Below are positions 19,613 to 48,487 of a stretch of 64,000 nucleotides of DNA, piece after piece. The first letter of the stretch is position 1. Every line of letters begins with the position of its first letter. The translations under genes were made by a program, and so were the position numbers. The notes under the pieces were generated by a model that saw only the letters and a list, made by a program, of their open reading frames with translations, ran no database searches and was not told the DNA's origin. The DNA lies in the sequence record NC_070982.1; one strand, written 5' to 3'. The stretch is from Escherichia phage vB_EcoP-101114UKE3.

Positions 19613-20461
19613 TTATTCCCAAGTTTTATCTAACCATGACCAATCAAAGAGGTCACCTTCAGCTTGTCCAACGAAGAGCAATCGAGCGTTTTCTAACATC
19701 TTATCTTCTGCTTCTTCCTCGAACCTCTTATAGTATTCCATTCGTATAATATGATAAAGAGTCCACTTATCGAATACCTTCTCAATAAGTTTGATTGCAG
19801 CCTTGCTACCAATGCCTTTACGGCGCATAACCAAGTTGCCACCCCACATCATTTCAACCTTCTCACCACAACCGGGAATATTATCTGTATTATCCCCAAT
19901 CAACATTTGGTAGAAGAAATTCTGCCATGCTACTTCTTCTGATACATAATGAGGAGGTACTTCTTTCTGTCTTTCTCCACAAGCCCAACGATAATGCCAT
20001 CCGGGAGTGATTAACAAATCTTTATCACGAGTACAGATAATCGTATTCTTATCTCGTCTCTGTCTTTCAGCTAGGGCATCATCTGCCTCTCTCCCAAAGA
20101 CTTCTACATACTCGTAATTTTCTTTAATATAATCACTAACGTTCTGCCAGTGGTGGGGTCTTTCTCCCGGTGGGCGATTAGCTTTGTAGCCTTGCTGTTT
20201 AGCAATGTTAAATCGAAAGTTACCACCTTCACTGAAGTAAAAGATTGTTTTCTCACAACCTGACCTTGCAATGATTACATCAATTTTGTGTTGAAGTCGT
20301 TCAATCAAGAATCCATAATCAACTGGAACACGACCTGTGTCTAGAAAAGGATGCTCTTGTGTAAGAGCACCGACTTCATATCGCAGAACATCTGCATCCA
20401 CAATTGCTACTTCAGGATAGATTACATCAGACATAGAGTTCTCTCCGTGTCCGTACAACAA
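19613..20461 (-). CDS. 5'-3' exonuclease/flap endonuclease
   Basis: N-terminal VAIVDADVL and H3TH-like GIGSKAAIKLIEKV motifs. Confidence 0.7.
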   Translation of the reverse strand: MLYGHGENSMSDVIYPEVAIVDADVLRYEVGALTQEHPFLDTGRVPVDYGFLIERLQHKIDVIIARSGCEKTIFYFSEGGNFRFNIAKQQGYKANRPPGERPHHWQNVSDYIKENYEYVEVFGREADDALAERQRRDKNTIICTRDKDLLITPGWHYRWACGERQKEVPPHYVSEEVAWQNFFYQMLIGDNTDNIPGCGEKVEMMWGGNLVMRRKGIGSKAAIKLIEKVFDKWTLYHIIRMEYYKRFEEEAEDKMLENARLLFVGQAEGDLFDWSWLDKTWE

Positions 20462-21023
20462 TCCAGTTTAAATAATCTACTGCATCTTCTACAGTAGAAT
20501 TATTCGCTAGGTAGTATGTATTTCTCTGACTACCTTCAATGTAGGAACGAGAATCTCCTTTAAAATCACAACCTTCACGAATCACCTGAATTACCTGAAC
20601 ATGGAAATGTTTCTCTAGTTCTTCAACTTCGGCTTTGAACCCACCATCAGAGAAGACGATAACATCATTCTGTGATGGGATACGTTGTTGAATACTGCTA
20701 ACAGCAAGTTTACCCATGCAGGTCTCACCAAACATAGGCTTCAGGTAATTCTCGCTAGTTGCAATCATCAAGTCTCGAACTGACTTACCGTCCCATTCAG
20801 GACGGCTATGTTCTTTCCACTCACGATCGTTGTACAGCTCCATGAACTCATAAAGAGGTAGACCTAATGCAGCAGCAGCCACTCGATACATAGGCTCCTT
20901 AAAAGCCTTTACATGAGGCCTAAACTCGGTGTTACCAAGTGTTTTCTCTAACCAAGAATTAGCGATTGTATCTTTACCACAACCCGGTGGTCCATTCAGA
21001 ATTACTACTAATGGTTTACTCAT
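20427..21023 (-). CDS. P-loop deoxynucleoside monophosphate kinase
   Basis: Walker A GPPGCGKDT; size and context. Confidence 0.55.
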   Translation of the reverse strand: MSKPLVVILNGPPGCGKDTIANSWLEKTLGNTEFRPHVKAFKEPMYRVAAAALGLPLYEFMELYNDREWKEHSRPEWDGKSVRDLMIATSENYLKPMFGETCMGKLAVSSIQQRIPSQNDVIVFSDGGFKAEVEELEKHFHVQVIQVIREGCDFKGDSRSYIEGSQRNTYYLANNSTVEDAVDYLNWIVVRTRRELYV

Positions 21024-23625: not shown

Positions 23626-24246
23626 TTACCATTCAAGTAAACCTTTAAAGTTAGTTTGTTCTACTATCCTCTGATAAGGTAAGTTAGATTCTGCTTGTTT
23701 GCTTAACACCTCTTGTACTTTATCAGTAATTGAATAATCTTTTTGTAATAAAGAAGCTACCCACTCTTTCCTACTTTCCAGTTCTTTTCTAATCTCTTGC
23801 AGAGACACAGCTCTGTAATCAATTTGTTCCATAGAAGTACAGAAGTATCTCCAATCTCTGATAGTAGAATTATGAGTATGAGCATAGATATTATACTTTC
23901 CTCTCATTTCATCAGAGTGAATAGGAATATGAGTTACCCAAAACTCTTTGTACTTATAATCACCACTGATGTGTCTAAAGACTTTCATCATATCAGGGAG
24001 AAGTTCTAATCTGTCATGGTTTCCTAAGACAAGATGTTTCTCTCCTTTTACTTCAGCGATAATATCAAGTGCATATTTCTCAAACACCCAATCACCTGTA
24101 AAGAAAGTTTTATCACGTTTAGTAACATGGTCAAACGCTGCTAAGATAGCTTTGTCGTGTTCTTCAATACTACTAAACTTCTTCCTAAAGTTACAGATGT
24201 TACGATGGCCTAGGTGACCATCACCTGCAAAATAAACTTCAGCCAT
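23626..24246 (-). CDS. calcineurin-like metallophosphoesterase
   Basis: GDGHLGH ... GNHD motifs. Confidence 0.65.
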   Translation of the reverse strand: MAEVYFAGDGHLGHRNICNFRKKFSSIEEHDKAILAAFDHVTKRDKTFFTGDWVFEKYALDIIAEVKGEKHLVLGNHDRLELLPDMMKVFRHISGDYKYKEFWVTHIPIHSDEMRGKYNIYAHTHNSTIRDWRYFCTSMEQIDYRAVSLQEIRKELESRKEWVASLLQKDYSITDKVQEVLSKQAESNLPYQRIVEQTNFKGLLEW

Positions 24247-31552: not shown

Positions 31553-31747
31553 TTAGATAACCTTGTGCTTATAGATGTTAGGGTTGTAGTAATGCAACCA
31601 GTTTATGTATTGTTTCTGTTCAAGGTAGTGTCTGCAATCATGACAAAAAGCATGACCCAAACCTGTTTCCTCGTTCAGCTTGAAGTTGATAAGAAGCTTC
31701 TGCTTTTGACAGAAGCTACATGCTTTAGTGGGCTTCACGTAATGCAT
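31553..31747 (-). CDS. small zinc-ribbon protein
   Basis: CSFC...CHDC cysteine pairs; start chosen to minimise overlap with ThyX. Confidence 0.35.
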   Translation of the reverse strand: MHYVKPTKACSFCQKQKLLINFKLNEETGLGHAFCHDCRHYLEQKQYINWLHYYNPNIYKHKVI

Positions 31748-32375
31748 CCCATGAGATTGGGAAAAGTTTACGAAGCTCTTCATCAACAGTTGATGCGAAC
31801 ACTCGTACTTCATACTGAGCATGGTCGGACAGTCGCTGACGACATAACTCTGACCAGCCATATAAAGAACCTGTCCACACCCACTCAGTGATCATACCTT
31901 GAGGTAGAACGAATCGGGCTTGCTCTGGAGCAATAAACTTAATCAACTCATCATATGACTCAAGAGCTGTTTCATATGCCCGATTAATCAGAACTAGTGC
32001 AGAGTTTTGCGCTCCCGTGGTGAGGAGATTCCCCGCACCTGCATGGAGGTCCGAAGGTCTTTCAAAAATCTCTTTAGGGATGAAGAGTTCAACTGCTCCA
32101 TCTTTATACCGCCGGGACATTTCGTTCCACGAGAATCCAACTTGATGCTTGCCCAGCTGTCTCGCAATTGCGATTGGCGCTTTGCATCGGAAGCTAATTG
32201 TCGGATGGCGGAATGGTGTGACATGCTTTTCTCTGGCAAGGAACTTGATAAGGCGTTCATCTCGTTCATTTAACTCTCCTTCACGAGTAACCCCAAAGGA
32301 AACTCGAGCTGCATTAACAACAGATTTATCAGAACCCATTGCTTCAATTAGTGTTGCTTGTAATTGTTCGTTCAT
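31725..32375 (-). CDS. thyX: flavin-dependent thymidylate synthase-like (ThyX)
   Basis: PFRHPTISFRCKAPIAIARQLGKHQVGFSWNEMSRRY aligns to ThyX signature region, with K-H-Q in place of R-H-R. Confidence 0.7.
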   Translation of the reverse strand: MNEQLQATLIEAMGSDKSVVNAARVSFGVTREGELNERDERLIKFLAREKHVTPFRHPTISFRCKAPIAIARQLGKHQVGFSWNEMSRRYKDGAVELFIPKEIFERPSDLHAGAGNLLTTGAQNSALVLINRAYETALESYDELIKFIAPEQARFVLPQGMITEWVWTGSLYGWSELCRQRLSDHAQYEVRVFASTVDEELRKLFPISWDALREAH

Positions 32376-33510: not shown

Positions 33511-34086
33511 TTAGTAAGACACATCACCACTGGAGTGGGACATGTTGCTCTTGACGAAGTAACAGAACTTGCCAAGACCTTCATTAATTTCTTGAAGCAT
33601 ACTCTGGTCCACTGGATAGGTGCACAAGTCTGAATCAAACTCATCCATCTTCTCAATGATACACATAAGAGTCATGCACATGTCGGAAAGCATACCGTCC
33701 ATGTCAAGATCAGCGTTACCTTCTCGGAACCAAGCATGACCTAAATAATTACTAGCAGTAGCATCCACTTTAACACAATGAAAGCGCATACGCTCTGCTA
33801 TTCGGTCGCCTGCCTCACGAGCATAATCTTCTAGTTCATCGAACATACCATGAACACCTTGGAAACCAGCTCCAGAGACGTTCCAGTGGTAGTTCTTTGC
33901 TTTGATGTGTAGAAGTTCAAGGTTAGCTTGCACACCACACAAGATGTGTTCTAAGCTGTTACCGCTAATCAGTTTATTCATTCCCTCAAGACGAGAGATA
34001 GAAGAGTCAGTAGCAGAGAATGGGTTGCTAGAACCCACTCGTGTTAGTTCTGGTAAGTCGAAGACATTATTATGCATTAGGTGCAT
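33511..34086 (-). CDS. Dps/ferritin-like protein
   Basis: YHWNVSGAGFQGVHGMFDELEDYAREAGDRIAER matches Dps ferroxidase-site region. Confidence 0.55.
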   Translation of the reverse strand: MHLMHNNVFDLPELTRVGSSNPFSATDSSISRLEGMNKLISGNSLEHILCGVQANLELLHIKAKNYHWNVSGAGFQGVHGMFDELEDYAREAGDRIAERMRFHCVKVDATASNYLGHAWFREGNADLDMDGMLSDMCMTLMCIIEKMDEFDSDLCTYPVDQSMLQEINEGLGKFCYFVKSNMSHSSGDVSY

Positions 34087-35093: not shown

Positions 35094-35627
35094 TTATACA
35101 CCCTTAGATGCAACTACACCATTACTGCCGTTGTATCGACCCTTCACTGCATAAGAGTCATCACCAGCGTGAGAGTGTTCGAACATAACCATTTGACCAA
35201 CACGCATCCCAGCACGAACTCGTAAGCTATGATTATGGGTAACGTTATGAAATTCAAAGGTTAGTTTACTGCTGTTAAACCCTGCATCAGCCCAACCAGC
35301 ATGGAGGTGGTTTAAACCACAACGAGCCATTGAGGAGCGAAGTACAAACAGGCTTGAGATGTTATCTGGAAGGTTAAACTCTTCCATTGAGTGCGCTAAG
35401 AAGAATTGCCCCGGAGTGATAACAATACCATCTTCAGGGATTTTTACTTCTTTCCACTTGAGGTTTTCTTTAGCATCAATGTCAACAATTCCGTCAGCCT
35501 GTTCTTCAACAAGGATAGTATCACCAATACGGATATCCACGCTAGCAGCGTTAACATATTTATGCTCCGCATCTAAAAAGCCATTATCAATAACGCTGTG
35601 TAATTCTTGAGAACCTAAAAGACTCAT
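35094..35627 (-). CDS. dcd: dCTP deaminase (dUTPase-fold)
   Basis: HAGWADAGFNSSKLTFEFHN motif. Confidence 0.7.
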   Translation of the reverse strand: MSLLGSQELHSVIDNGFLDAEHKYVNAASVDIRIGDTILVEEQADGIVDIDAKENLKWKEVKIPEDGIVITPGQFFLAHSMEEFNLPDNISSLFVLRSSMARCGLNHLHAGWADAGFNSSKLTFEFHNVTHNHSLRVRAGMRVGQMVMFEHSHAGDDSYAVKGRYNGSNGVVASKGV

Positions 35628-37087
35628 GAGTTTCTGTTTCCTTGTACAGATGATGCCAAATTATTAATCATGTTACGAGCTGTTTCACGAGATAGTGTAA
35701 CACCTGCTAAGTTGTTATGAAGCTCACCAGATAGCTCACGAGCAGCAGCTCGAAGTTCTGTACCAAGTGTAGTATCGGAGTGAGCCAAACCATTACGACG
35801 ACTATAAGGTCGAGGAGCTTCGTTAGCGTCATTAGCCAATGATGCAAAACCAATATGAGCAGCTTCACGAGACGCTATAGTTGACACTCGATCTTCCGTA
35901 GGGGTTGGCAAATCACCAACTTCTACACGTTCTATATCACCAGCACGTAGACCCTGAACGACTGAGCTTACTGTTTCCCATGAACGACGAGAACGCTGTA
36001 AATCACCCATTGACGGAGAAGAAGCAGGTCGAACAGTTACTCCACCTGTATCATGAGTGACATGCCATGTACGAGTATCCATTCCAGAAGAGCGTGCACT
36101 ACCAAAACTGCCAGTGAAAGTGTCACGAGGTGCCATTGTAGGAGGAACTGCGAATCTTTCCTGTTGCCAAGAATCGCGTCTGTTAGTTCCCGGAGTCCAA
36201 GGCTGCGTGATTGCTTCAGCACCTATAGTGGTTAATCCGCTAGACCATTCTGTCTGTAGGTTAACTTCCTCGTCCAGATAACTACGACCCCTTTCCTGAG
36301 GAATGTTTAATATAGTTTCCATCATCTTCAGGGTATAATGACGACGCTGATTCTGATATAAATTTACACCAGCCATAGGTCCAACTAAATCACTAATCAG
36401 GTGAACTTCTGGCTCACCGAAAGCTCCCATTGCAAGGTGCATATATTCGGTAGAACTGCTATAAACTGCAACAGTTGCTTCAGGCCACTTCTTGTGAACA
36501 TACTTCATTTCACGACCAGATACCACAGGAATGTCACGAGTGTATGACATTGCAAACAAACCTTCGTTTGACACATACATGTCATCAAGAGACATGAACC
36601 CCTGACAGATCATAGGAAAGCGACGGCTTAAAGTATCCATATCCAAAGGTAGATTAATCATCATCTGGATTTTAACTTGATCAATCTCAATTTCCAGAAT
36701 CTCTTGGAAAGTGAAAAGTGCTTCAGCGTAAGTTGTCCCACTAACAGGCTGAACTAGGCGAGATGTAGTTTGAAGCCCTTTACTCTCTGTCCAAGACAAG
36801 AAGTTGTCAAGGAACAGTGCAGCATTCATCACGTTAGCAGGGTTGTTTTCCTGACGGGTGTTCCAACGAAACCCTCCTTGGACTAGGAAGATATCCACAT
36901 CATTCGGAGTTCGGTTCTGGAAGAACGTATCACGGATAGCACCACCTGCAATAACAGGGTAGATACCATCAGGAACTACGTTGTCTCTGATCAGATTGCG
37001 AATCAGATCAAGCCCTACGCTGAGGGCTTCTCCTTCTTGAAGGTTTAATTCAGACAATGGAATCTTAATCATTTCTACATTTTCCAA
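35624..37087 (-). CDS. nucleotidyltransferase (CCA-adding/poly(A)-polymerase-type head) with low-complexity C-terminal half
   Basis: [10 protein letters not shown]...DVDIFLV polymerase-beta-type NTase motifs; C-terminal 230 aa S/T/R/A-rich. Confidence 0.5.
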
Positions 37088-39442: not shown

Positions 39443-39650
39443 TTAGTAAAACGATCGTATTTCTTCCCACACATCATCTTGCAAGTTTCTAAAACCCTGC
39501 AAGGTTTGCTTTGTTCTGTGAATAAATTCTTCAGAGTGCTTATCAGGTGTGAGCATACTGACAAACTTTTCATAGCGATTAATCTTCCACCGCATCTTCA
39601 AGTAGTCAGATTCCAGCTTTCTTAACTTCTGCCTGTCAGTTACTGTCATC
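39443..39650 (-). CDS. hypothetical protein
   Basis: start MTVTDRQ at 39650; track start 39745 would overlap GGCT gene. Confidence 0.3.
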
Positions 39651-40067
39651 CTTCTCACCTGCCAGATATGCTGTCCAGTCACCAGATTCAACCAGAACAT
39701 CTTGTTCTTCGTCGATGTGATAAATCCACGCTTCCACAGTTTCACCGCTGTCCAATAATACTGGAATCAGTGTACGCTTGTAAAAGGTGTATGGGTTATC
39801 ATTACCACGATGACCTTCCAGACCGTCATACGGACCTTCCAGACCAGCTTGGGTTGTTTCAAAGACTTCTACACGAACAGGCTTACCATTGCTGTCATGC
39901 TCCAAAGATACACTTGGGAAGTATGCTGTGCAATACTGATACAGGTTACAGTTGTTTACTGTCCACCCTTCACCAATAGACACACCACCTGCACGAGCAT
40001 TGATAGCGTGGTTGTGTTGACCTTTACGAAGAGAACCATACGTTGCAACTAATACTTTATCAGACAT
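39636..40067 (-). CDS. gamma-glutamyl cyclotransferase-like (AIG2/GGCT fold)
   Basis: N-terminal VATYGSLRKG motif. Confidence 0.6.
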   Translation of the reverse strand: MSDKVLVATYGSLRKGQHNHAINARAGGVSIGEGWTVNNCNLYQYCTAYFPSVSLEHDSNGKPVRVEVFETTQAGLEGPYDGLEGHRGNDNPYTFYKRTLIPVLLDSGETVEAWIYHIDEEQDVLVESGDWTAYLAGEKDDSN

Positions 40068-40071
40068 TACA

Positions 40072-40269
40072 TTACCTTTTGTTTAAAATTTCTTTTGTAC
40101 AAGAAGTCCCGTTACACACGAGAACTGTTTGAGTTATAGAATCGACAACTGTTACATGGCTGCCGCATTGAGTTATGATTTGACCTCTCCCTGAATCTTT
40201 AGAGATGCATTCATCAGCGGCGATCGCTGACACACTGAATAAGGAGAGGAAAAATAGAATCTTTTTCAT
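40072..40269 (-). CDS. small secreted Cys-rich protein
   Basis: signal peptide MKKILFFLSLFSVSAIAA; 6 Cys in mature part. Confidence 0.4.
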   Translation of the reverse strand: MKKILFFLSLFSVSAIAADECISKDSGRGQIITQCGSHVTVVDSITQTVLVCNGTSCTKEILNKR

Positions 40270-40275
40270 GGCTGC

Positions 40276-40692
40276 TTACCAATCATGTTGGAAACCAGAA
40301 TATCCAGAGAAGATGATTGATCGGATTGGCTTTTCAGGGAATCCTTCAAAACATCCCTTAATGGCTTTCTTGGTTTCATCAGAAATTGACTCTTTTTCAC
40401 CAAACCAATATTCTTCAAAAATATCAGAGAAGATATAAGTTCGGTATCTTTCCAAGTCATAAAAACCTTCCACTGCACTTGTAACAGCTCTACTAATTAC
40501 ACTTGAAGCTACAGGAAATAAGTCACCGTGTTCCAGAAACAAGCACCAACGATCAAAGAGAGGAATCTCTTCATCTTTCAGAAGACTTTCTAACTCTTCC
40601 TTTGCCTCTTTCTTGTGCTTCTCAAAGAGGTTTTTGGAATACTCTACATCTAAGATACGACTTTTAAACATATCCAGTTTATTATTAACCAT
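40276..40692 (-). CDS. hypothetical protein
   Basis: 138-aa ORF. Confidence 0.4.
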   Translation of the reverse strand: MVNNKLDMFKSRILDVEYSKNLFEKHKKEAKEELESLLKDEEIPLFDRWCLFLEHGDLFPVASSVISRAVTSAVEGFYDLERYRTYIFSDIFEEYWFGEKESISDETKKAIKGCFEGFPEKPIRSIIFSGYSGFQHDW

Positions 40693-40718
40693 TTTACAAC
40701 CTCTAGTTAAATTCGAAC

Positions 40719-40742
40719 TAGCCTCCTCTTTCGAAGAGGCTA
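40719..40742 (-). promoter_or_regulatory. intergenic RNA hairpin with GAAA tetraloop
   Basis: perfect 10-bp stem on minus strand (C-A mismatch on plus strand); no U-run. Confidence 0.35.
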
Positions 40743-40749
40743 AAGCAAA

Positions 40750-40935
40750 TTATTCTACTTCGAAGTGTTTGATCACACCAGTCAGTACATCAGATTGGAA
40801 TGTACCCACTAGCTCTGTACCTCGGAAAAAGTTAACACTTGTTCCAAGTGATTCAAAGCGATCTGCTTGAATGTCCAGAGATTGAATATTTCCTTCTGCT
40901 GACATTGTACGAAACATGATTGTGTATTTATTCAC
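40750..40935 (-). CDS. small hypothetical protein
   Basis: 61-aa ORF. Confidence 0.35.
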   Translation of the reverse strand: MNKYTIMFRTMSAEGNIQSLDIQADRFESLGTSVNFFRGTELVGTFQSDVLTGVIKHFEVE

Positions 40936-41174
40936 AGACTCGTTACTCCCTTATCTGCTTGTGCAATTGCGATGATACGCTCAGCACATTCCATTGAATA
41001 CTTATCACCTCGTTTGAGGAAGGTGATGATTGCAGAGAACTGATTACCAATCATTCTCTTATTTGTGATACCAAACTCTTCACAGAGTTGGTTGATAGCT
41101 TTACGAGAGCCTACAATCAGAGGCTCTTTTTCTTCGGTCATTCCACGGCTGATCAAATCTTCGATAGACAACAT
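40932..41174 (-). CDS. small hypothetical protein
   Basis: 80-aa ORF. Confidence 0.35.
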   Translation of the reverse strand: MLSIEDLISRGMTEEKEPLIVGSRKAINQLCEEFGITNKRMIGNQFSAIITFLKRGDKYSMECAERIIAIAQADKGVTSL

Positions 41175-41200
41175 TACAAATTCCTTTTTGTTTAATTTAA

Positions 41201-42436
41201 TTACAGAGTTACTGCTACTTCGCTACCTTCAACATTGACAGACTCTAACTTGCGAGGGTTATGAATCTGGACTGGATTGACCGGAACGTTCCAACCACTG
41301 CGGTAGAAGTTACGACCATCACAGAACAAAATGACATTGGCAGACATTGCATTCGGTTGAAGGTTGTTGTGGACGTGACGGATATCTGCAATCCAGTAAC
41401 CACGAGACAAAGTGTAACCAGTAGGTGCATTACGAATAGTTTGAGTATTCATCTGACCTTCTAGCTGCATTTCTTCAGGAACTACATCTACCGAATCAAC
41501 CGGCTGTGCTACTTGTCCTTCCAGTGCAAAGTTTTCATCATCAGCACTTTCAATATCATCCACTAACTCACCGTCTCCATCTTCAATCGGAGTCTGGTAA
41601 ACCACTTTATACTGAGGAGTATAGAGAGGGTTCTGAGCTTTAACAAACTCAAGAATGTTATGACGGTAGGTATCCAGAGTTGTACCAGTCAGGCCCGGTG
41701 CTGTATTAACTTCCAGTACCCACGCTTCTTGACCTTTGGTGATAATATCAACTGCACCGAAATCCAGACCCATTGATTCAACAGCTTTCACTGCATTGAT
41801 CAGAGAGGCGTCATTCGGAGCATCTGTGAAGGAGCTTGAGTAAACCCAGCCAGTGTGGTGATTACGAATATCTTCACGATAGTTAGGGTCTTCGCGATAA
41901 CCATTGCGACGAATCTTCTTCTGAACATAGGTGATTACACCTTTGAACACATGGACACGCCACTCACGACGTGGGCCTTGAATGCCTTTAGTGTACAGTT
42001 CAGCTCGACCAAGACCATCACCCGGTTCTACAACAACAATGCCCGAACCAGAGTGACCAGTCAGCTCATGGCGCTCATACACAATATTACCAGTGTTTGA
42101 CCACTCTTGAGCAGTCTCTTGAACATCTGTGTATTCCACAGTTTTAACACCTGCTTGGTCCATCACGCTGAAAGCACGACGTTTGTTCGCTGCCATATGT
42201 AAGGCTGCGGTACGGTTAAGGACGGTTGCAGAACCAAAGAATGATTCAGGATAGCGACGGTTCCCGTAGTTAACAACCACATCACCTTCACGAGAACGCC
42301 AGCGGCTATTCTCTGAAAGAAGACCCATCACGTTAGCATTGATGCGTTCATCACGGATAGTATCACTGATAGCAGATACTAGAGCGTTAACAGAATCAGA
42401 CGGGCCATACGGAAGAACACGGATACGAGTAGTCAT
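41201..42436 (-). CDS. ATP-grasp amidoligase
   Basis: C-terminal WVLEVNTAPGLTG ATP-grasp signature. Confidence 0.75.
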   Translation of the reverse strand: MTTRIRVLPYGPSDSVNALVSAISDTIRDERINANVMGLLSENSRWRSREGDVVVNYGNRRYPESFFGSATVLNRTAALHMAANKRRAFSVMDQAGVKTVEYTDVQETAQEWSNTGNIVYERHELTGHSGSGIVVVEPGDGLGRAELYTKGIQGPRREWRVHVFKGVITYVQKKIRRNGYREDPNYREDIRNHHTGWVYSSSFTDAPNDASLINAVKAVESMGLDFGAVDIITKGQEAWVLEVNTAPGLTGTTLDTYRHNILEFVKAQNPLYTPQYKVVYQTPIEDGDGELVDDIESADDENFALEGQVAQPVDSVDVVPEEMQLEGQMNTQTIRNAPTGYTLSRGYWIADIRHVHNNLQPNAMSANVILFCDGRNFYRSGWNVPVNPVQIHNPRKLESVNVEGSEVAVTL

Positions 42437-42438
42437 TT

Positions 42439-42669
42439 TTAGATACCTTTTAGTTTAAGAATTTCGTTACGACAGGATTGAATTTTAGCTTCGATTGCCC
42501 AATACTCAGCGAACATTTCGTCTTCTTGGGCATCGCTTGGAGAGTCGATTAAGTTAAAAGCAAACGGATACAGCTTTCGCTGCTCCGTTACCAGTTGTTG
42601 AAGTCGGAGTTGTTGATACTCCAGCATTGTCAGGTGAGGCTTAGCTCCCTTGCTTGACATGAGGCTCAA
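42439..42669 (-). CDS. small hypothetical protein
   Basis: 76-aa ORF. Confidence 0.35.
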   Translation of the reverse strand: MSLMSSKGAKPHLTMLEYQQLRLQQLVTEQRKLYPFAFNLIDSPSDAQEDEMFAEYWAIEAKIQSCRNEILKLKGI

Positions 42670-42874
42670 CTTTAATCCCCTTCATTTTAACATAGTCAGC
42701 CAACACGTTATTGATAACGGTTGGAAAAGGGATTTCTACTGGAGAGTCAACCAGCTTCCCAATACCTTCTTGCATCCACTTCTGGATTGCTCGGAGGTTA
42801 TCACATCCTGTGCTTGTCATCGGAATACGGCGGGTAGTTACCACGTTATCCAACATCAGTTTACGAACTTCCAT
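42641..42874 (-). CDS. small hypothetical protein
   Basis: 77-aa ORF overlapping previous by 29 nt. Confidence 0.35.
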   Translation of the reverse strand: MEVRKLMLDNVVTTRRIPMTSTGCDNLRAIQKWMQEGIGKLVDSPVEIPFPTVINNVLADYVKMKGIKVEPHVKQGS

Positions 42875-42885
42875 AACTATACCTC

Positions 42886-44919
42886 TTAGTGTTTACCTTT
42901 ACAGTAATCTGAATTACAGATCACCCTGTTTTCTTTGTTCAGTGAGCAAGTTTCTGCATCACGCCACGGAATTTGTTTATAACAGACTGCACAAAACCCA
43001 ATTGAAGTCCAGAGGGCTTTTGTAAACTCAGCTGTTCGTTGTCCATCGTAACTGACAACTGTTTTTCGGAGAGAGGTTGACTTTTCTGGAAATGTCTCCG
43101 CTTTCTCAGCGGGTACCTCCTTTGGGGCATTCTTTGGACCATAAACAGAGATGGCATAAGTATCACCACCACGTTTTTCCAAATACGAATTAGGAACATC
43201 TGCAAGTGTGATGTCCCCTGAACGTTTTGCTGAGCTGACCATTACAATCATACGGCTAAGCATACGTTCATCAACACGAACAGCTACTTCAGGACGACGT
43301 GGGTTGGTTGTGTCTACTGCTTTAGTCCAAATATAACCTTCAGATAGAGTAACATTCTTTACTTTATCTTTGATTTCTTTGGAGCAGATATAACAAACGT
43401 CTTCACCACGAAGTTTACTCATTTCGTTGTCAAACTCGAAATCAGTCTTGACTTCACCACAGATAGCACATACACCCAAAGGCACATCTTCTTCCTCTTC
43501 AGAGGTTTTAGATAACGCTTCGAAGCATTCTGGATGCCAGTATGCCTGATAAGCAAACACAGCCTTACGAGCATCTTTCCAGTCAATGTGCTTATCACAA
43601 CCACCACAGTCACCATGAGAGTGAGATTCCCAGAACTTACGAGTGACTTCTACACCATTCTTAGTGATGAAGGAGTCCTCTGCATCAAAAGGGATATCAT
43701 CATCAAAATCAGCAGTAGTGCTTTGAGGCTCCTTATCTGTAGCATCAACAAACAGCCCTGAAGTTAGTACGAGGCGAATCATACTGTCCACTTCGGAGAT
43801 ACAAGCAATCGTCCCGCGATATACTACCTTTGGGTTTTCAAGAGCCTTAAGATATTCATCTTTGGCTACGTTGTGAACATCCCCTTCGACATACTCTTGA
43901 GCTTTATCATCGTAGATGTAACCAACCATCTTACCACGATCTGTGTTGTTATAAGCATGGAACTCGTGAGGAATAATATCCACACGACCATCACGACGAT
44001 AAGGAAGACCGCGATCGGCAGCCAGTTTGTTCTGGTCTTCAATCGCTTTACGACGACGAATGTCTCCGCTTGTCACGCCGGGCTTGTCGTCTTTGTTTCC
44101 GTAAATGTCGCTTGTGCTGCTGCTTGATTTGTTTGTCTGTTGGTTCTGATAAAGAGAGGAGTTCGAGTAATAGCCGCCCCAGCGACTCGTTACCGTAAAA
44201 ACCGGAAGCGTGTGCTCCACCTCTTGAACCAGAGTCATACGACTGTTAGACACATCAAAGATATACTCAGTTCCCACTTTACATTCGAAGTGGTCATTGA
44301 TATGGTTCTTATGGGACTTAGAACGCTCTAAAATCCACATAAGCATAGCTTCTTCAGAAGCTCCAAACCAATCCAAACCACAGCGGGCTAGGTGGAAAGG
44401 ACGCTCATCATTACGGATAATGTGAAGTGTGTTGTCTTTAGCATCATGCCAAATCAAAGTGAATGCACCATCCAGTTTTTGGATAGTCTCTGCTGCTCCA
44501 ATGGTGTTAATTGAGTGGCAGATGTTTTCACTATCAACTTCGAAACGCTTACTGTCAGGAAGGAGATCTTGATCTAACAGGGTTCCATTATGAACCAGAG
44601 TAATATCCCCGTGAGTAAATGGGTGAGCATTTCGAGCATTGACAGCCCCACGAGTGGCATGTCGGCTGTGACCAACAATCCACGAAGGAGGAACTACGTA
44701 GTTCGTAAGCCCTTTGGTAATATTTGTATATTCTGTCTGGAGCATAAAAGCATAAGAAGGAAGAGCTTCTTTATAAGAGAAGACTTGCTTTTCACCTTTA
44801 CGCTGACCAAACACACCAGTTGAGTGCTGTCCACGGAAAACACCAGCATACAGAAGTTGGTTGAAAATGTCCAAATCTGCTGAGGTCATGTTGCCGCCAG
44901 CTAATACGATACCACAAAT
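42886..44919 (-). CDS. class-II (Ntn) glutamine amidotransferase fused to Cys-rich Zn-ribbon region; proposed AUU start
   Basis: CGIVLAGGN...YAGVFRGQHSTGVFG and HSRHATRGAVNARNAHPF...LVHNGTL match PurF/AsnB-type domain; catalytic Cys lies 9 codons upstream of track ATG (44889), preceded only by ATT then AAA then TAG, with AGGTGG SD 8 nt before ATT. Confidence 0.65.
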   Translation of the reverse strand: MCGIVLAGGNMTSADLDIFNQLLYAGVFRGQHSTGVFGQRKGEKQVFSYKEALPSYAFMLQTEYTNITKGLTNYVVPPSWIVGHSRHATRGAVNARNAHPFTHGDITLVHNGTLLDQDLLPDSKRFEVDSENICHSINTIGAAETIQKLDGAFTLIWHDAKDNTLHIIRNDERPFHLARCGLDWFGASEEAMLMWILERSKSHKNHINDHFECKVGTEYIFDVSNSRMTLVQEVEHTLPVFTVTSRWGGYYSNSSLYQNQQTNKSSSSTSDIYGNKDDKPGVTSGDIRRRKAIEDQNKLAADRGLPYRRDGRVDIIPHEFHAYNNTDRGKMVGYIYDDKAQEYVEGDVHNVAKDEYLKALENPKVVYRGTIACISEVDSMIRLVLTSGLFVDATDKEPQSTTADFDDDIPFDAEDSFITKNGVEVTRKFWESHSHGDCGGCDKHIDWKDARKAVFAYQAYWHPECFEALSKTSEEEEDVPLGVCAICGEVKTDFEFDNEMSKLRGEDVCYICSKEIKDKVKNVTLSEGYIWTKAVDTTNPRRPEVAVRVDERMLSRMIVMVSSAKRSGDITLADVPNSYLEKRGGDTYAISVYGPKNAPKEVPAEKAETFPEKSTSLRKTVVSYDGQRTAEFTKALWTSIGFCAVCYKQIPWRDAETCSLNKENRVICNSDYCKGKH

Positions 44920-44996
44920 TTTCTAATCCACCTGAAGGGTAAACCCTTTCATCTAATTAACCTTTAAATGCGCCCTGTATAAGAGCGCCCGTTGTG

Positions 44997-46097
44997 TTAC
45001 AGCAGTCGTTCTAATTGCATTTCCAGATGGTCTGGAATATAACCAGTGACGTTATCATCACTGCTACCTGATTCACGCATCAATGCAAACATGTGACGAA
45101 TTTCACGAACCGTTGCGATTCGAGTGCTTTCAATCTGAGGGGTGTAGTAGGTCATGATCTCTTCGTAGACACTGTTGGCATTACCGCGCACATATCCCAA
45201 GAAACCATAGAAGTCATTCATATCACGTAAGTTGATAAGGACTTCACCATCAGGGCCAGTCTGTTGCACACGAACACGACCAACCAAAGTTACAGATTGC
45301 TCACGACAGAAGAGAATATCACGAGCAAGACGATACCCTTCAGTGAGATCACTGTCTCTTGGAGTATAGTCTAGGGGTAGATGTTGAATCATAGGAGCGA
45401 AGCGCAGCTCATTCAACTTCTCAACATAAGCTTCATTGTCTAAATCTGCATATTCAACAGCCAGTTTCTTGAGAACCAAGAAGCGGTTGACCAGATTCAG
45501 AAGTTGGCTCTTTTTCCACTTCGGCTCTGAGATACGGAACTCAACAGAACCAAATTGAGATAGAGGCAAAAGATTAAGGGAGGTGTATTTATCCCAGCTA
45601 TTAACAAGAGAGTGGAAGAAAGCTTCCCCGTCTCGGTTGAACGCTGACGAAGCATTCATAACTTGTGCTTGAACGACAGCAAAAGCTGGACAGAAGTTGC
45701 TACGATAGCGATGGTATCCAGAACATTTGAACATCATCTTTTCATAGAACGTCCATCCAAGAATAACTTTCTTAAGGATATTACTATCAGCGTCACGCAT
45801 ATCCATATGAACGTGAGTGGAGCAGCGCCAAGTTCCCTCGGCTCCAGAATCCTGTACTGCTTCACTCAGATTGTTAATAGCACGAAGTAATTCTTCACCG
45901 TTGTAAGGTCGTGCACATACTAATTCACAACCATCACGAAGAGAGCCATCTTCAGTACAAACCCACATATCAGCGTCAATGTCAGTTGTACCTTCGACTT
46001 CTAACTCAATACCAACACCACACTGAAAAGCAATACTTGGATGCGGTTCAGATAAGCGAGGGTTACGGTATCCAAAAACTTGTGCTACGGTTGTCAT
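44997..46097 (-). CDS. amidoligase (glutamine synthetase/GCS-like fold)
   Basis: GIELEVEG ... CSTHVH motif pattern. Confidence 0.5.
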   Translation of the reverse strand: MTTVAQVFGYRNPRLSEPHPSIAFQCGVGIELEVEGTTDIDADMWVCTEDGSLRDGCELVCARPYNGEELLRAINNLSEAVQDSGAEGTWRCSTHVHMDMRDADSNILKKVILGWTFYEKMMFKCSGYHRYRSNFCPAFAVVQAQVMNASSAFNRDGEAFFHSLVNSWDKYTSLNLLPLSQFGSVEFRISEPKWKKSQLLNLVNRFLVLKKLAVEYADLDNEAYVEKLNELRFAPMIQHLPLDYTPRDSDLTEGYRLARDILFCREQSVTLVGRVRVQQTGPDGEVLINLRDMNDFYGFLGYVRGNANSVYEEIMTYYTPQIESTRIATVREIRHMFALMRESGSSDDNVTGYIPDHLEMQLERLL

Positions 46098-46720
46098 AAT
46101 GATTCCACCAACTCTACATTATATGATGACAGGTCTGAAGAAATATGCTTGAACTTCTCCAGAAGGTTTAAAGATTGACGACCATTGTCGCCATAACCAG
46201 CTTCAAGAAGCACGTTTCCAACGTAAGCCCCTTTGTAATAAACTTTTCCATCGACAGGATTGATATAGATGAAACGAGTAACCAACCCTTCAAACTCTGG
46301 ATTAAACAGGTTATACACCAAATCACCCGGAATCGAACGTCCGAGAGAAGGTGGAGTACCACGAAGTTTATTCCCCATCAAGCCTTTAGCTCGCTGACGA
46401 ACAGGGTTGATATGGGTCCAGCTCACCACGTTATTACCATGCTGAAGGTATCCTACATCTGGAGACTCCAGAATGAGGCTGTGATCAAACACTGGGATAT
46501 TACTAACAATCTGACGTTCAAACTGACCTTCGGAGTTTTTAGTCCAGCGTTCCGCCTCAAACACTAAAGACATTTCAGCGTCGTGTGAGTAGTCGTCGAT
46601 ATCAAAGTTACCTTGCTGACGAACATCAAGCACATATAGAGGGAGGTTTTTACCATCAGGTGATCGCTGAGCAATCCATGTTCCACAATAATAGTGTTGA
46701 AAATCTCTTAACAAGCTCAC
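46094..46720 (-). CDS. hypothetical protein (cassette member)
   Basis: 208-aa ORF translationally coupled within cassette. Confidence 0.4.
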   Translation of the reverse strand: MSLLRDFQHYYCGTWIAQRSPDGKNLPLYVLDVRQQGNFDIDDYSHDAEMSLVFEAERWTKNSEGQFERQIVSNIPVFDHSLILESPDVGYLQHGNNVVSWTHINPVRQRAKGLMGNKLRGTPPSLGRSIPGDLVYNLFNPEFEGLVTRFIYINPVDGKVYYKGAYVGNVLLEAGYGDNGRQSLNLLEKFKHISSDLSSYNVELVESL

Positions 46721-46729
46721 AATATCACC

Positions 46730-47536
46730 TTATACAATCTGGAGTTTAGAGGAGAATTTATCTGCTTCTTTAACATCGTTACTGTTGATGATGTTGTGAA
46801 GCTTTTCAATTGGAAGGCGAGAGTGAAGTGACATCAATACTTCCATATCACAGCCTTGAACAACCTTATCAACTTGCTCATAAACAAACTTGCGGGTTGA
46901 CTTCTCGCCAATCCAGAAGTTAGAAAGAGAACGATATTCAATACCGTAATCCTTGTAACGAATGGCAGAAGCCTTTCCGTATAACTCTTTACGACGAGTG
47001 TCTTTATCCATGATTACAGCTGGCAAGGACAGGAAATAATCACACAACACACCCAACATCATTTGAGTTTGTCGAGTAATCTCTAAAGTCCCGGAGACAC
47101 CAAGGTGCACATGACCCCCAGCAGTACGCAAACCCTTATTAGTTGCGACCGGTGAAGGGTTCTTTTGTCCAGTGAAGGCATTGAAATCAGGAGTACAACC
47201 AAATACAAAGGCTGACGGATGGAAAGATTCAAGCTCTTCTGAAGTGAACACATGAGAGCTAATCCCAAGTGCTGCCTCCATGCCACGTTCATTGAGAACT
47301 TTGTTAGTCAGATCAATACCACGCTGAATGTTATCATCAAACGCTTCAAACCCTTCCTGTGGGTTAATATCAAACTCGGCCAGAACGTTGTCTTCTTGAA
47401 GACGAACATCAGGAGCCAGATCAATTTTATTGTCTTTAGAACAGCCCAGCTTACCAGCCACAGAGGTGATAATACCGGAAGCAGTACGAACAAACATTTC
47501 AGGGTCAGAGCCAATAAGGAAAGCGCGCTTAGTCAT
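46730..47536 (-). CDS. COOH-NH2 ligase-like protein (second amidoligase)
   Basis: start MTKRAF at 47536 with GGAG SD; GSDPEMF ... GCTPDF ... GGHVHLG motifs. Confidence 0.5.
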   Translation of the reverse strand: MTKRAFLIGSDPEMFVRTASGIITSVAGKLGCSKDNKIDLAPDVRLQEDNVLAEFDINPQEGFEAFDDNIQRGIDLTNKVLNERGMEAALGISSHVFTSEELESFHPSAFVFGCTPDFNAFTGQKNPSPVATNKGLRTAGGHVHLGVSGTLEITRQTQMMLGVLCDYFLSLPAVIMDKDTRRKELYGKASAIRYKDYGIEYRSLSNFWIGEKSTRKFVYEQVDKVVQGCDMEVLMSLHSRLPIEKLHNIINSNDVKEADKFSSKLQIV

Positions 47537-48479
47537 TGTAATACTCCACGAGTTCATCAAAAAGGGAAACAACACGAGCACCAGCTTCTTCTGGTGTCAT
47601 TGAGGAAGGTACTGCTTGCATCAGACGTTCGATAAAACTTTGAACAGTAATTCTGTCCATACGCTGATCTAATACTTCTCGCTTGTGACCTGCACAAGTT
47701 GACCAGAGACGTAACCACTCACTCATACTCTCATAATGGTCAGGGTCTTGGTCACGACGACGTGCCATACGACGGAGAACTCCATCATTATGGTTTCGTA
47801 CATAACCATCTCGGTTGTCATCAACACCGAATACATTCTGAACCCATACGTTTTCAGAAAATTCATCAGTGGTGCAAATTAATGGCAGAAATGCAATTGC
47901 ACTCATGTCGCCATCAAAATAAGTCGCTGCTGACTCATCGGTTGAGTCTACGTCATTACTATAACACCAGCGACCAAAGAAGTTACGACTTAAACCAGCT
48001 AAGCGTAGAGCTAAACCGATTCGTTGTCGCTTAAGCAACTCTTCCTTGTCTTGTACGCCTTCCTGAAGGAACTCCATTCCATTAAAATCACCATCCAAAT
48101 AGCTACGGATGGTCATTAGTCCAGTAAACACCTTGTCTGCTGGATGGTTTCGAAGGTTCACGGCAATAGAGTTCACCGAAGTGACAGAGAACATATCTTT
48201 ATAGCAAGACATTGAGTTAAAAATGTCTGTTGCTTCAACTAAAGCTCTTTCGATATCTTTAGCTGGTACGCCATAAAAATTGTGAGGCCAGAAGTTAATA
48301 ACTTCAATTTCTGAAGTTCTGTCACGAAGGCTTGTTCGGTTACGACTTTCACCGTTAATGTCTGTAACAGAATACATGTGCATACAGTTAAAAGTACCAA
48401 AGCAAGCTCTTCCTTTGAACACTGACTCACCGAAATCCTCTGCCGGTGTTACCGGAGCAATCGATGCGGAGATTGACAT
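47529..48479 (-). CDS. hypothetical protein (cassette member)
   Basis: 316-aa ORF. Confidence 0.45.
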   Translation of the reverse strand: MSISASIAPVTPAEDFGESVFKGRACFGTFNCMHMYSVTDINGESRNRTSLRDRTSEIEVINFWPHNFYGVPAKDIERALVEATDIFNSMSCYKDMFSVTSVNSIAVNLRNHPADKVFTGLMTIRSYLDGDFNGMEFLQEGVQDKEELLKRQRIGLALRLAGLSRNFFGRWCYSNDVDSTDESAATYFDGDMSAIAFLPLICTTDEFSENVWVQNVFGVDDNRDGYVRNHNDGVLRRMARRRDQDPDHYESMSEWLRLWSTCAGHKREVLDQRMDRITVQSFIERLMQAVPSSMTPEEAGARVVSLFDELVEYYND

Positions 48480-48487
48480 ATTCGCCT

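Follow-up and report, generated by a model that had tools for sequence, protein, structure and literature searches.

The genomic window analyzed here is a stretch of 64,000 nucleotides of Escherichia phage vB_EcoP-101114UKE3 (NC_070982.1). In its early/replication gene block lies thyX (31725..32375, minus strand), an ATG-started open reading frame encoding a 216-aa homologue of flavin-dependent thymidylate synthase, which falls into a clade named here x8/S-R-R-Y. Residues 8-206 of the product align to positions 1-190 of the 191-position Pfam profile Thy1/ThyX (PF02511; E=1.1e-42) with a score of 146.4 bits (curated cut-off 24.8). A match to PHROG 85, 'thymidylate synthase', was obtained as well (E=4e-61). 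In phmmer comparisons, similarity was found to ThyX of Thermus thermophilus (Tth; E=6e-29) and Thermotoga maritima (Tm; E=4e-26). The AF2 model, a ligand-free monomer (pLDDT 86.3, pTM 0.80), has the alpha/beta core and helical flanks of the ThyX fold; Foldseek aligns it to the holo structures 1O26/1O27 of Tm ThyX with TM 0.80-0.83 and a probability of 1.00, and its best 50 matches are exclusively ThyX or PolB. The protein does not adopt the fold of the classical thymidylate synthase ThyA, as its Pfam match is to Thy1/ThyX alone and its structural neighbours are ThyX and PolB. Over the 2 kb compared, the window is 100% identical to MZ234015.1 (Escherichia phage vB_EcoP-101114BS3, Gordonclarkvirinae), in which the gene is annotated as 'thymidylate synthase ThyX'. 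It is an ordinary-looking phiEco32-like coliphage thyX, whose annotation is correct and already known.

The signature loop of the enzyme, encoded at 32106..32150 on the minus strand, translates to KHQVGFSWNEMSRRY (K76-H77-Q78-V-G-F-S-W-N84-E85-M-S87-R88-R89-Y90) and replaces the canonical R-H-R-x7-S-x-R-Y. In the phmmer alignment to Tm ThyX, K76, H77, and Q78 correspond to Tm R78, H79, and R80, and S87-R88-R89-Y90 to Tm S88-G89-R90-Y91. A one-residue insertion in the loop (VGF, compared with IA in Tm ThyX) gives the spacing K-H-Q-x8-S, and only the His and the Ser of the classical R-H-R-x7-S motif are literally matched. The residue that follows the signature Ser is Arg rather than Gly or Ala; all x8 variants read S-R-R-Y, while the canonical RHR-x7 proteins read S-[G/A/Q]-R-Y (n=5: Tm, Tth, L5 gp48, phiYS40, and RcPescado). 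The residue at position 89 of PBCV-1 ThyX can place its side chain in the pocket for the dUMP phosphate (PMC3498832). A previous sequence-only reading of this DNA had described a ThyX-like enzyme with K-H-Q in place of R-H-R and a retained Ser, which Pfam, the alignment, and the translation confirm. Its statement that the third position of the motif is normally a phosphate-binding Arg also holds (PMC6514825); the spacing of x7 that it assumed must be corrected to x8, and it had passed over the Arg after the Ser. Judged by these residues, the product is a ThyX homologue best placed in the variant x8/S-R-R-Y clade, outside the canonical RHR type.

In solved ThyX and PolB complexes, dUMP is contacted by Tm R74, Q75, E86, S88, R90, Y91, R147, and R174 (PMC5003785). 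The phage protein carries the complete set of these substrate-binding and uracil-activating residues, as R72, Q73, E85, S87, R89, Y90, R154, and R181, respectively. The first Arg of the RHR motif stabilises the reduced flavin at N1/C2=O, and His53 stacks the folate (PMC11940539). This folate-stacking residue is H51 in the phage enzyme, and a His is kept there in 139 of 141 clade members. The position of Tm R78, whose basic side chain faces the flavin N1/C2=O, is occupied by K76 (Lys in 118 and Arg in 22 of the 141); K76 is a conservative replacement, presumably equivalent to Arg in function. ThyX enzymes are homotetramers that bind FAD, and each active site is built from three subunits. Canonical RHR residues hydrogen-bond the AMP-phosphate, the ribityl moiety, and the FMN phosphate of FAD (PMC6514825). 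Two arginines that serve the FAD phosphate and ribityl groups, Tm R80 and R165 (the latter equivalent to Mtb R190), are absent, and Q78 and Y172 stand in their places. Across the clade, R80 is exchanged for Q, K, or T, R165 for Y, A, or L, and N163 for S. The thyX product has gained two other arginines, R88 (Tm G89) and R56 (Tm E58), and these may substitute for the lost R80 and R165. The E58 to R exchange is found in 118 of 119 Kuravirus-like sequences, and most other clade sequences have R or H at the position of Tm N169.

A collection of 390 relatives, among them the 150 top-ranking 50%-identity representatives drawn from 1.8 billion proteins, contains no RHR-x7-S motif (0/390). The pattern KHQ.GFSWNE.SRRYK is kept in 119 of 120 close homologues, which share 52-98% identity, and KHQ...S[R/T]RY in all 120 marine relatives; the loop consensus common to the relatives is [K/R]-H-x-(V/I)-G-x3-(N/S)-E-x-S-R-R-Y. 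The residues of Tm S30, H53, H59, R74, Q75, E86, S88, R90, Y91, E144, R147, R174, Q180, and E182 are likewise retained in 85-100% of the 141 clade members, nearly all of them in at least 96%. Ser takes the place of Tm His79 in 15 of these 141 sequences, and loop positions covary within the clade (Q..W 52, K..E 13, T..R 9). Several members carry inteins inside the signature loop, and sites essential for function are the usual homing targets of inteins. The title of a 2004 work by Liu and Yang, 'distinctive ThyX motifs', suggests that intein-bearing ThyX proteins may already have been reported to have variant motifs. The variant motif is under strict purifying selection and accompanied by the correlated changes G89 to R, R165 to Y, and E58 to R, a pattern that resembles remodelling of the flavin-phosphate site rather than drift.

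The distribution of the clade is wide. The diverse 28-sequence alignment was too variable for a genome scan, and an alignment restricted to KHQ sequences worked. Exactly K-H-Q is found in Chaseviridae (phiEcoM-GJ1) and in abundant marine phages, and these share the x8 loop and S-R-R-Y with Schitoviridae (N4-like) and Barbavirus, which differ in reading K-H-K...E. Cellular members of the same clade, 39-45% identical to the phage enzyme, occur in Spirochaetia (KHQ-x8-S-R-R-Y) and Dependentiae/TM6 (RHT/KHS-x8-S-R-R-Y), where, unlike the phage gene, they lie in housekeeping neighbourhoods. In a 1.79-Mb Spirochaetia chromosome (OZ251568.1), the KHQ-x8 gene adjoins pyrD, pyrF/E, pyrB, and pyrC, and its GC content is identical to that of its flanks. 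In Dependentiae, the RHT-x8 thyX overlaps dcd in one genome (L027), a pairing with dCTP deaminase like that in the phage, and RHT-x8 genes of this group adjoin rplS/aaRS or lpxB; yet another thyX of the clade, on a 1.08-Mb contig, adjoins rpsA, efp, and glyA/SHMT. These contexts would support a role of the clade genes as thymidylate synthases. Several other loci were considered as cellular and set aside. The KHQ loci of Novosphingobium, Phenylobacterium, and Hyphomicrobiales proved to be phage replication modules rather than housekeeping genes. A locus in a 'Rickettsiales' MAG (L015), with ClpX and HhH-GPD as neighbours, was dropped because an 86% identical homologue (P0282) lies in a phage-like block with HhH-GPD, ThyX, rotamase, PhoH, Peptidase_M15, 2OG-Fe(II) oxygenase, MazG, and a clamp loader. 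No enzyme assay or thyA complementation was found in the searchable literature for any x8/S-R-R-Y member. Mycobacteriophage L5 gp48, considered as an experimentally active enzyme with a variant motif, has the canonical RHR-x7-S-Q-R-Y and was rejected, and a paper on Dictyostelium ThyX, examined for the same purpose, contains no motif data.

With the T. maritima (TM0449; 1O26/1O27) and T. thermophilus Thy1 (6J61) enzymes, the phage protein shares family, fold, 33% identity, the dUMP ligands, and His53; it differs from them by R78 to K, R80 to Q, the x8 spacing, G89 to R, N163 to S, R165 to Y, and E58 to R. PolB (4P5A/4P5B), the C5-methylase of UMP/dUMP in polyoxin biosynthesis, likewise has the ThyX fold and the same substrate ligands, and gives the highest query-normalised TM (0.85; phmmer E=2e-17). 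It belongs to an antibiotic gene cluster, in contrast to the replication module that holds the phage gene, and its dual specificity depends on the tyrosines Y124 and Y126 of Loop 1/Loop 2, plus Y99 (PMC5003785). Among viral enzymes, PBCV-1 ThyX has been characterised (PMC3498832, PMC10733785). PBCV-1 A674R, L5 gp48, and the ThyX of Thermus phage phiYS40 are virus-encoded ThyX proteins for dTMP supply, as the phage enzyme probably is; L5 gp48 and the phiYS40 protein retain the classical R-H-R-x7-S-[Q/G]-R-Y and are about 30% identical to the protein described here. L5 gp48 is an active enzyme.

Several other genes of nucleotide metabolism accompany thyX. The dCTP deaminase gene (35094..35627, minus strand) encodes a product matching Pfam DCD (PF22769; E=1.6e-34), and it is adjoined by a gene for a conserved 482-aa nucleotidyltransferase. 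A dNMP kinase gene (20427..21023, minus strand) matches PHROG 139, 'deoxynucleoside monophosphate kinase' (E=7e-41), and is annotated likewise in MZ234015.1 and Bas88. The window also contains an amidoligase cassette (PF12224, PF14395, GATase, RimK-like, and GGACT). The dCTP deaminase, the dNMP kinase, and the cassette had all been named in the sequence-only reading; a HAD nucleotidase, which it named as well, could not be recovered, as no HAD-family protein was found by Pfam and PHROG scans of a subset of the ORFs of the window or by a motif-I regex applied to all ORFs of at least 80 aa. A calcineurin-like metallophosphoesterase (23626-24246) was the sole phosphoesterase detected. A linkage between the variant motif and the amidoligase cassette was considered and rejected: the cassette occurs in 261 phage records (109 of them Pseudomonas) and ThyX homologues in 1205, with a different taxonomic spread. 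Judged by organism name, the Gordonclarkvirinae nucleotidyltransferase is confined to Escherichia/Shigella (96 records). Both the cassette and this nucleotidyltransferase are absent from the three clade loci read in other phage groups (L004, L092, and L094).

The product of the ORF is probably an active thymidylate synthase of the flavin-dependent type, which would convert dUMP, CH2-THF, and NAD(P)H to dTMP and THF; it belongs to a large, predominantly phage-borne lineage. This lineage has rebuilt the R-H-R-x7-S-x-R-Y loop in the form of the clade consensus, leaving the nucleotide-binding, uracil-activating, and folate-stacking residues unchanged. K76 could still face the flavin N1/C2=O, and the missing FAD-phosphate arginines would be replaced by R88 and, in the Kuravirus-like group, additionally by R56. 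Catalytic activity of the product and its coupling to the two companion enzymes are presumed. The phage dCTP deaminase would act upstream as a supplier of deoxyuridine nucleotides, turning dCTP into dUTP; host Dut would yield dUMP, ThyX would produce dTMP, and the phage dNMP kinase would carry out the downstream step to dTDP. Such a pathway would raise the supply of dTTP for a genome of 42% GC in a host of about 51% GC, without a need for DHFR.

A different view of the enzyme starts from restriction. Gordonclarkvirinae phages plate at an EOP of about 1 on strains with the tested restriction systems despite many sites, and the authors of the BASEL study suspect that the DNA of this group is covalently modified (PMC11990801); beyond this speculation, literature searches found nothing on ThyX or DNA modification in phiEco32/Kuravirus. 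The S2 table of that study gives six counts for Bas88 (9/6/18/60/106/131), which we take to be the numbers of recognition sites for each of the six restriction systems examined; the counts in the first plating row are close to the vector control. The window itself holds 27 EcoRV and 8 EcoRI sites. An enzyme of altered chemistry or substrate might produce 5-hydroxymethyl-dUMP or a different pyrimidine modified at C5, or use dCMP or UMP, and thereby feed the modification behind this resistance, a proposal that we consider very improbable. It could draw on the remodelled flavin-phosphate environment, on the broadened specificity of the ThyX homologue PolB (PMC5003785), and on the conserved nucleotidyltransferase next to dCTP deaminase. 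However, many phage families unrelated to one another, as well as cellular housekeeping loci, share the same or a related signature, which thus cannot be an adaptation specific to Gordonclarkvirinae. Both arginines that bind uracil O2/O4, R89 and R181, are kept, which disfavours cytosine. None of the scanned ORFs was found to encode a kinase, transferase, or glycosyltransferase of the kinds that 5hmdU-based pathways typically employ, and the thymidine hypermodification pathways known so far use hydroxymethylases of the ThyA family (PMC8989533). The DNA of phiEco32 is cleavable and clonable, given that a map of it was made from restriction profiles and sub-clones (PMC9965538). In the window, CCWGG is completely avoided (0 sites, about 143 expected), which indicates that restriction acts on the phage DNA, and 6-mer palindromes number 597 instead of the expected 1079; such strong avoidance is expected of DNA cleavable by restriction enzymes. 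It is equally hard to credit that the Gordonclarkvirinae enzyme makes no dTMP, or makes it alongside another product, and supplies a non-canonical pyrimidine nucleotide for virion DNA, even though, if true, this would explain how these phages withstand restriction of types I, II, and III. In a milder version, the whole clade may form a ThyX class of its own, distinct in mechanism and binding its flavin in another way.

A related possibility, which is a sub-variant of the thymidylate synthase explanation and compatible with it, is unlikely but has an appreciable chance of being correct: the enzyme would make dTMP with a different handling of cofactors, through a changed flavin mode or affinity (a looser, exchangeable FAD or the use of FMN) or another preference for the reductant. 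The clade-wide loss of R80, R165, and N163 is in line with it, as are the basic residues that reappear at different positions in different sub-clades (E58 to R; N169 to R/H), the His79 to Ser exchange, and the covarying loop positions. This proposal is drawn from sequence comparison, and Thermus ThyX, a canonical enzyme, also lacks R165, having His there. A catalytically dead relic, kept for a nucleotide-binding, structural, or regulatory role, is the least probable of all: the textbook RHR motif is missing, but the catalytic and substrate-binding residues are all invariant across a very deep clade, inteins sit inside the signature loop, and clade genes in cellular genomes occupy positions expected of a housekeeping thymidylate synthase.

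The sequence-only reading had left the variant as either neutral or a mark of changed substrate use, and neither option fits fully. 'Neutral' is not quite right, and changed substrate use is unsupported, given that all dUMP-contact residues and His53 are retained, that the variant is the lineage signature of hundreds of 50%-identity clusters, including genes among pyrimidine-biosynthesis genes, dcd, and glyA, and that it does not covary with the amidoligase cassette or the nucleotidyltransferase. That reading had also asked whether the variant is common among active ThyX enzymes; it is widespread, and it is genomic inference that points to the activity of those enzymes.

K-H-Q is what a large ThyX lineage, carried mostly by phages, normally has as its signature, and it is no evidence of a new activity. 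Since the 'altered signature' is a trait of the clade, it is no pointer to new biology in this genome. For the family, at least the 150 best among some 6,900 50%-identity representatives lack the textbook R-H-R-x7-S motif; they include abundant marine phages and chromosomal enzymes of Dependentiae. Screens that rely on the motif, and inhibitors designed around RHR contacts, are not transferable to the x8/S-R-R-Y clade. For Gordonclarkvirinae, the conserved ThyX and dNMP kinase argue against the published idea that these phages replace T by dU.

The thyX gene of the window (31725-32375, minus strand) encodes a 216-aa protein whose identity is already known, as it is annotated in GenBank as 'thymidylate synthase ThyX'. 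The product covers the entire Pfam Thy1/ThyX profile (E=1.1e-42) and matches PHROG 85 ('thymidylate synthase'). Its AlphaFold2 model (pLDDT 86, pTM 0.80) reaches TM scores of 0.80-0.83 against T. maritima ThyX holo structures, and its top structural matches are without exception ThyX proteins or PolB, a ThyX-like methylase. The gene lies in a tightly packed minus-strand early/replication block, with PhoH/ligase-like genes on one side and a thioredoxin-like gene on the other; a local scan gave no promoter or terminator of note nearby. Among relatives, vB_EcoP-101114BS3 (MZ234015.1), a phiEco32-like podovirus of the Gordonclarkvirinae, shows 100% identity across the 2 kb compared, and for IME267, MLP3 and the BASEL phages Bas87 and Bas88 the figure is 92-98%.

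The signature region, KHQVGFSWNEMSRRY (translation of 32106-32150, minus strand), was aligned with that of T. maritima ThyX (FRHRIA-SYNELSGRY), in which R78, H79, R80 and S88 (Tm numbering) correspond to K76, H77, Q78 and S87 of the phage protein. The K-H-Q in place of R-H-R noted in the sequence-only reading was borne out. Its x7 spacing was wrong, since the alignment places one additional residue between motif and Ser, so that the signature is K-H-Q-x8-S, and R88 after the Ser, where T. maritima has Gly, had been overlooked.

This non-textbook motif is the norm of a large, mostly viral ThyX lineage, called here the x8/S-R-R-Y clade (8 residues between motif and Ser, then R-R-Y). Among the best 120 90%-identity clusters from 5.8 billion proteins, spanning 98% down to 52% identity, 119 of 120 relatives carry ARQL.KHQ.G..WNE.SRRYK. 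HMMER was run exhaustively on 1.84 billion representatives at 50% identity and returned 6,933 members of the family, 359 of them at E<=1e-30; R-H-R-x7-S was found in none of the best 150 of these, and the canonical motif in 0/390 of all proteins collected. The motif pattern parsed 123 of the best 150, namely K-H-Q-x8 (62), K-H-K-x8 (13), R-H-T-x8 (9), R-H-Q-x8 and K-H-T-x8 (7 each), K-H-K-x7 (6) and a few with other motifs. Many of the 27 unparsed representatives have Ser in place of the motif His, as do 15 of 141 aligned clade members, and S-R-R-Y is present in almost all 150. In isolated phages, K-H-Q occurs in Gordonclarkvirinae and Chaseviridae, K-H-K...E in Schitoviridae/N4-like phages and Barbavirus, and S-H-L with x9 spacing in Streptomyces BE-cluster phages. 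Unlike the clade, Thermus phage phiYS40, Rhodobacter phage RcPescado and mycobacteriophage L5 (gp48) have the canonical R-H-R-x7-S-[G/A/Q]-R-Y. In marine metagenomes, the K-H-Q form is extremely abundant, in a large-phage context.

Four relatives from outside the window (P0121, P0132, P0222 and P0260) reach 350-640 aa owing to an intein within the motif loop, located between (V/I)-G and W/x-N-E-x-S-R-R-Y and ending in ...VVHN with Ser or Cys at +1. Liu & Yang 2004 reportedly deals with an 'intein ... distinctive ThyX motifs' and may describe the same situation.

When the 141 clade members were aligned with the T. maritima, T. thermophilus and L5 enzymes, Tm S30, H53, H59, R74, Q75, E86, S88, R90, Y91, E144, R147, R174, Q180 and E182 proved to be kept in 85-100% of members, nearly all of them in at least 96%. 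In PolB/ThyX complex structures, the dUMP phosphate is bound by R74, Q75, S88, backbone 89, R90 and R147, the ribose O3' by E86 and R78, and uracil O2/O4 by R174 and R90 (PMC5003785); folate is stacked by a conserved His (PMC11940539). We count all these ligands and the folate-stacking His within the kept set, R78 itself being replaced by K, which preserves the positive charge of a residue that stabilises the anionic reduced flavin (PMC11940539). The clade further shows R80->Q/K/T and R165->Y/A/L, whose equivalents are arginines H-bonding the FAD phosphates and ribityl (PMC6514825), as well as N163->S, G89->R (137/141), E58->R (118/119 Kuravirus-like sequences) and N169->R/H in most sub-clades other than Kuravirus-like. 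There is also covariation in the loop, between the third residue of the motif and the one preceding N-E (Q/W 52, K/E 13, T/R 9). Judged from the alignment, this pattern looks like concerted remodelling around the flavin phosphates, the nucleotide and folate site being intact, and therefore no pyrimidine substrate change is predicted. Cytosine would not suit the two arginines donating H-bonds to uracil O2/O4.

Across GTDB species, each represented by one genome, 80 clade loci were found, many of which are phage or prophage replication modules; clade thyX stands alongside PolA, T7-type primase-helicase, FEN and RNR in Novosphingobium, Phenylobacterium and Hyphomicrobiales, and alongside a prohead protease on a Nitrosopelagicus-MAG contig. 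Several loci are clearly cellular, in places expected of a housekeeping thymidylate synthase. A complete 1.79-Mb Spirochaetia chromosome bears a 45% identical K-H-Q-x8 gene, operonic with oxidoreductases and adjoining pyrD, pyrF/pyrE, pyrB and pyrC; the gene matches its flanks in GC (0.440 against 0.441/0.442). Dependentiae/TM6 carry R-H-T-x8 genes, a type found in 8 Babeliales/TM6 species. In candidate division TM6 bacterium GW2011_GWF2_37_49 (locus L027, 5890-7265), thyX overlaps the dCTP deaminase gene in an apparent operon, flanked by aminoacyl-tRNA synthetase/rplS and a periplasmic binding protein; this thyX-dcd pairing mirrors the phage gene set. A second TM6 thyX adjoins lpxB and htrA, and an R-H-T-x8 gene on a 1.08-Mb contig lies near rpsA, efp and the gene for the CH2-THF-producing enzyme (glyA/SHMT).

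One further locus (L015, a 46.7-kb contig of the 'Rickettsiales bacterium MED657' MAG, NZHE01000011.1) was withdrawn as cellular, its close homologue being phage-borne; it probably belongs to a marine phage and was mis-binned. The HhH-GPD-ThyX pair is matched on ENA contigs L092-L094, where genes for PhoH, MazG, Cpn10, a 2OG-Fe(II) oxygenase, a Peptidase_M15 protein and a clamp loader are also present, and Tara/ENA marine assemblies contain the K-H-Q ThyX of these phages in very high abundance.

Among the companion genes listed earlier, dCTP deaminase, dNMP kinase and a phiEco32-type amidoligase cassette were confirmed; the HAD nucleotidase was not found. The ORFs scanned gave no Pfam or PHROG match to a HAD phosphatase, no window ORF of 80 aa or more holds a DxDx[TV] motif-I candidate, and the sole phosphoesterase found is a calcineurin-like metallophosphoesterase (23626-24246, minus strand; PF00149, E=6e-5). 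The cassette (39636-49705), entirely on the minus strand, comprises a GGACT gamma-glutamyl cyclotransferase (39636-40067), a RimK-like ATP-grasp protein (41201-42436), a 667-aa class-II glutamine amidotransferase (42886-44889), an Amidoligase_2 (44997-46097), a COOH-NH2 ligase type 2 (46730-47536; PF14395) and four conserved proteins without Pfam match. A 482-aa 'nucleotidyltransferase' (35624-37072, minus strand; PHROG 12715, no Pfam match), whose gene overlaps the end of the dCTP deaminase gene, is confined to 96 records of Escherichia/Shigella phages, which fits Gordonclarkvirinae; most of these conserve no more than the N-terminal ~280 aa (~31% identity). Phage records with the amidoligase gene number 261 (109 Pseudomonas, 91 Escherichia), and its carriers include Pseudomonas Bruynoghevirus phages. 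ThyX homologues (1,205 records) have a taxonomic spread quite unlike either, and therefore the ThyX motif tracks neither gene. A 188-aa protein (33511-34077, minus strand; PHROG 3636) with a short ferritin-like match (PF00210, E=7e-8, residues 56-99) is labelled 'DNA binding protein' in Bas88 and 'integrase' in MZ234015.1; the latter looks wrong for a virulent podovirus.

The suggestion that the altered motif marks changed substrate use is thus unsupported: the dUMP, uracil and folate residues are kept, the motif is clade-wide, and it does not track with amidoligase or nucleotidyltransferase. Non-canonical chemistry of ThyX could draw on the so far unexplained restriction resistance of the phage. 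The BASEL authors tie the nucleotidyltransferase to possible DNA modification and to the unexplained RM resistance of the group, and speculate that it might, with dCTP deaminase, yield dU-DNA, ThyX being unmentioned (PMC11990801). For Bas88, their S2 table gives six counts (9/6/18/60/106/131), read here as site numbers for six tested restriction systems, and the counts in its first plating row are near the vector control. Against such chemistry stands the composition of the window (1-64000), where CCWGG, the Dcm/EcoRII site, is absent (~143 expected from base composition) and about half as many six-base palindromes occur as expected (597 vs 1,079). GATC is halved (124 vs 237), BamHI, PstI and SacI sites are absent, and EcoRV, HindIII and EcoRI have 27, 26 and 8 sites; CAGCAG (85 vs 21) and GAAGA (332 vs 138) are over-represented. 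Moreover, the published mapping of phiEco32 relied on restriction profiling and sub-cloning (PMC9965538). CCWGG absence, palindrome depletion and this mapping speak for largely canonical DNA susceptible to cleavage by restriction enzymes, and replacement of T by U is disfavoured by the strict conservation of ThyX and dNMP kinase. We consider non-canonical chemistry very improbable, and grant it a small residual chance because no nucleoside analysis of Gordonclarkvirinae phages and no assay of any x8/S-R-R-Y clade member was found in the literature. A different flavin-binding mode only, which is compatible with the main explanation, seems rather unlikely.

The most likely function of the phage ThyX is in a thymidylate-supply route, in which phage dCTP deaminase would make dUTP, host Dut would provide dUMP, ThyX would form dTMP with reduced folate not consumed to dihydrofolate, and phage dNMP kinase would yield dTDP. 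Such a route suits a genome of 42% GC replicating in a host of ~51% GC. For the biology of these phages, dU-DNA is an unlikely cause of their restriction resistance; for the enzyme family, the classical ThyX motif fails to describe the x8/S-R-R-Y clade.
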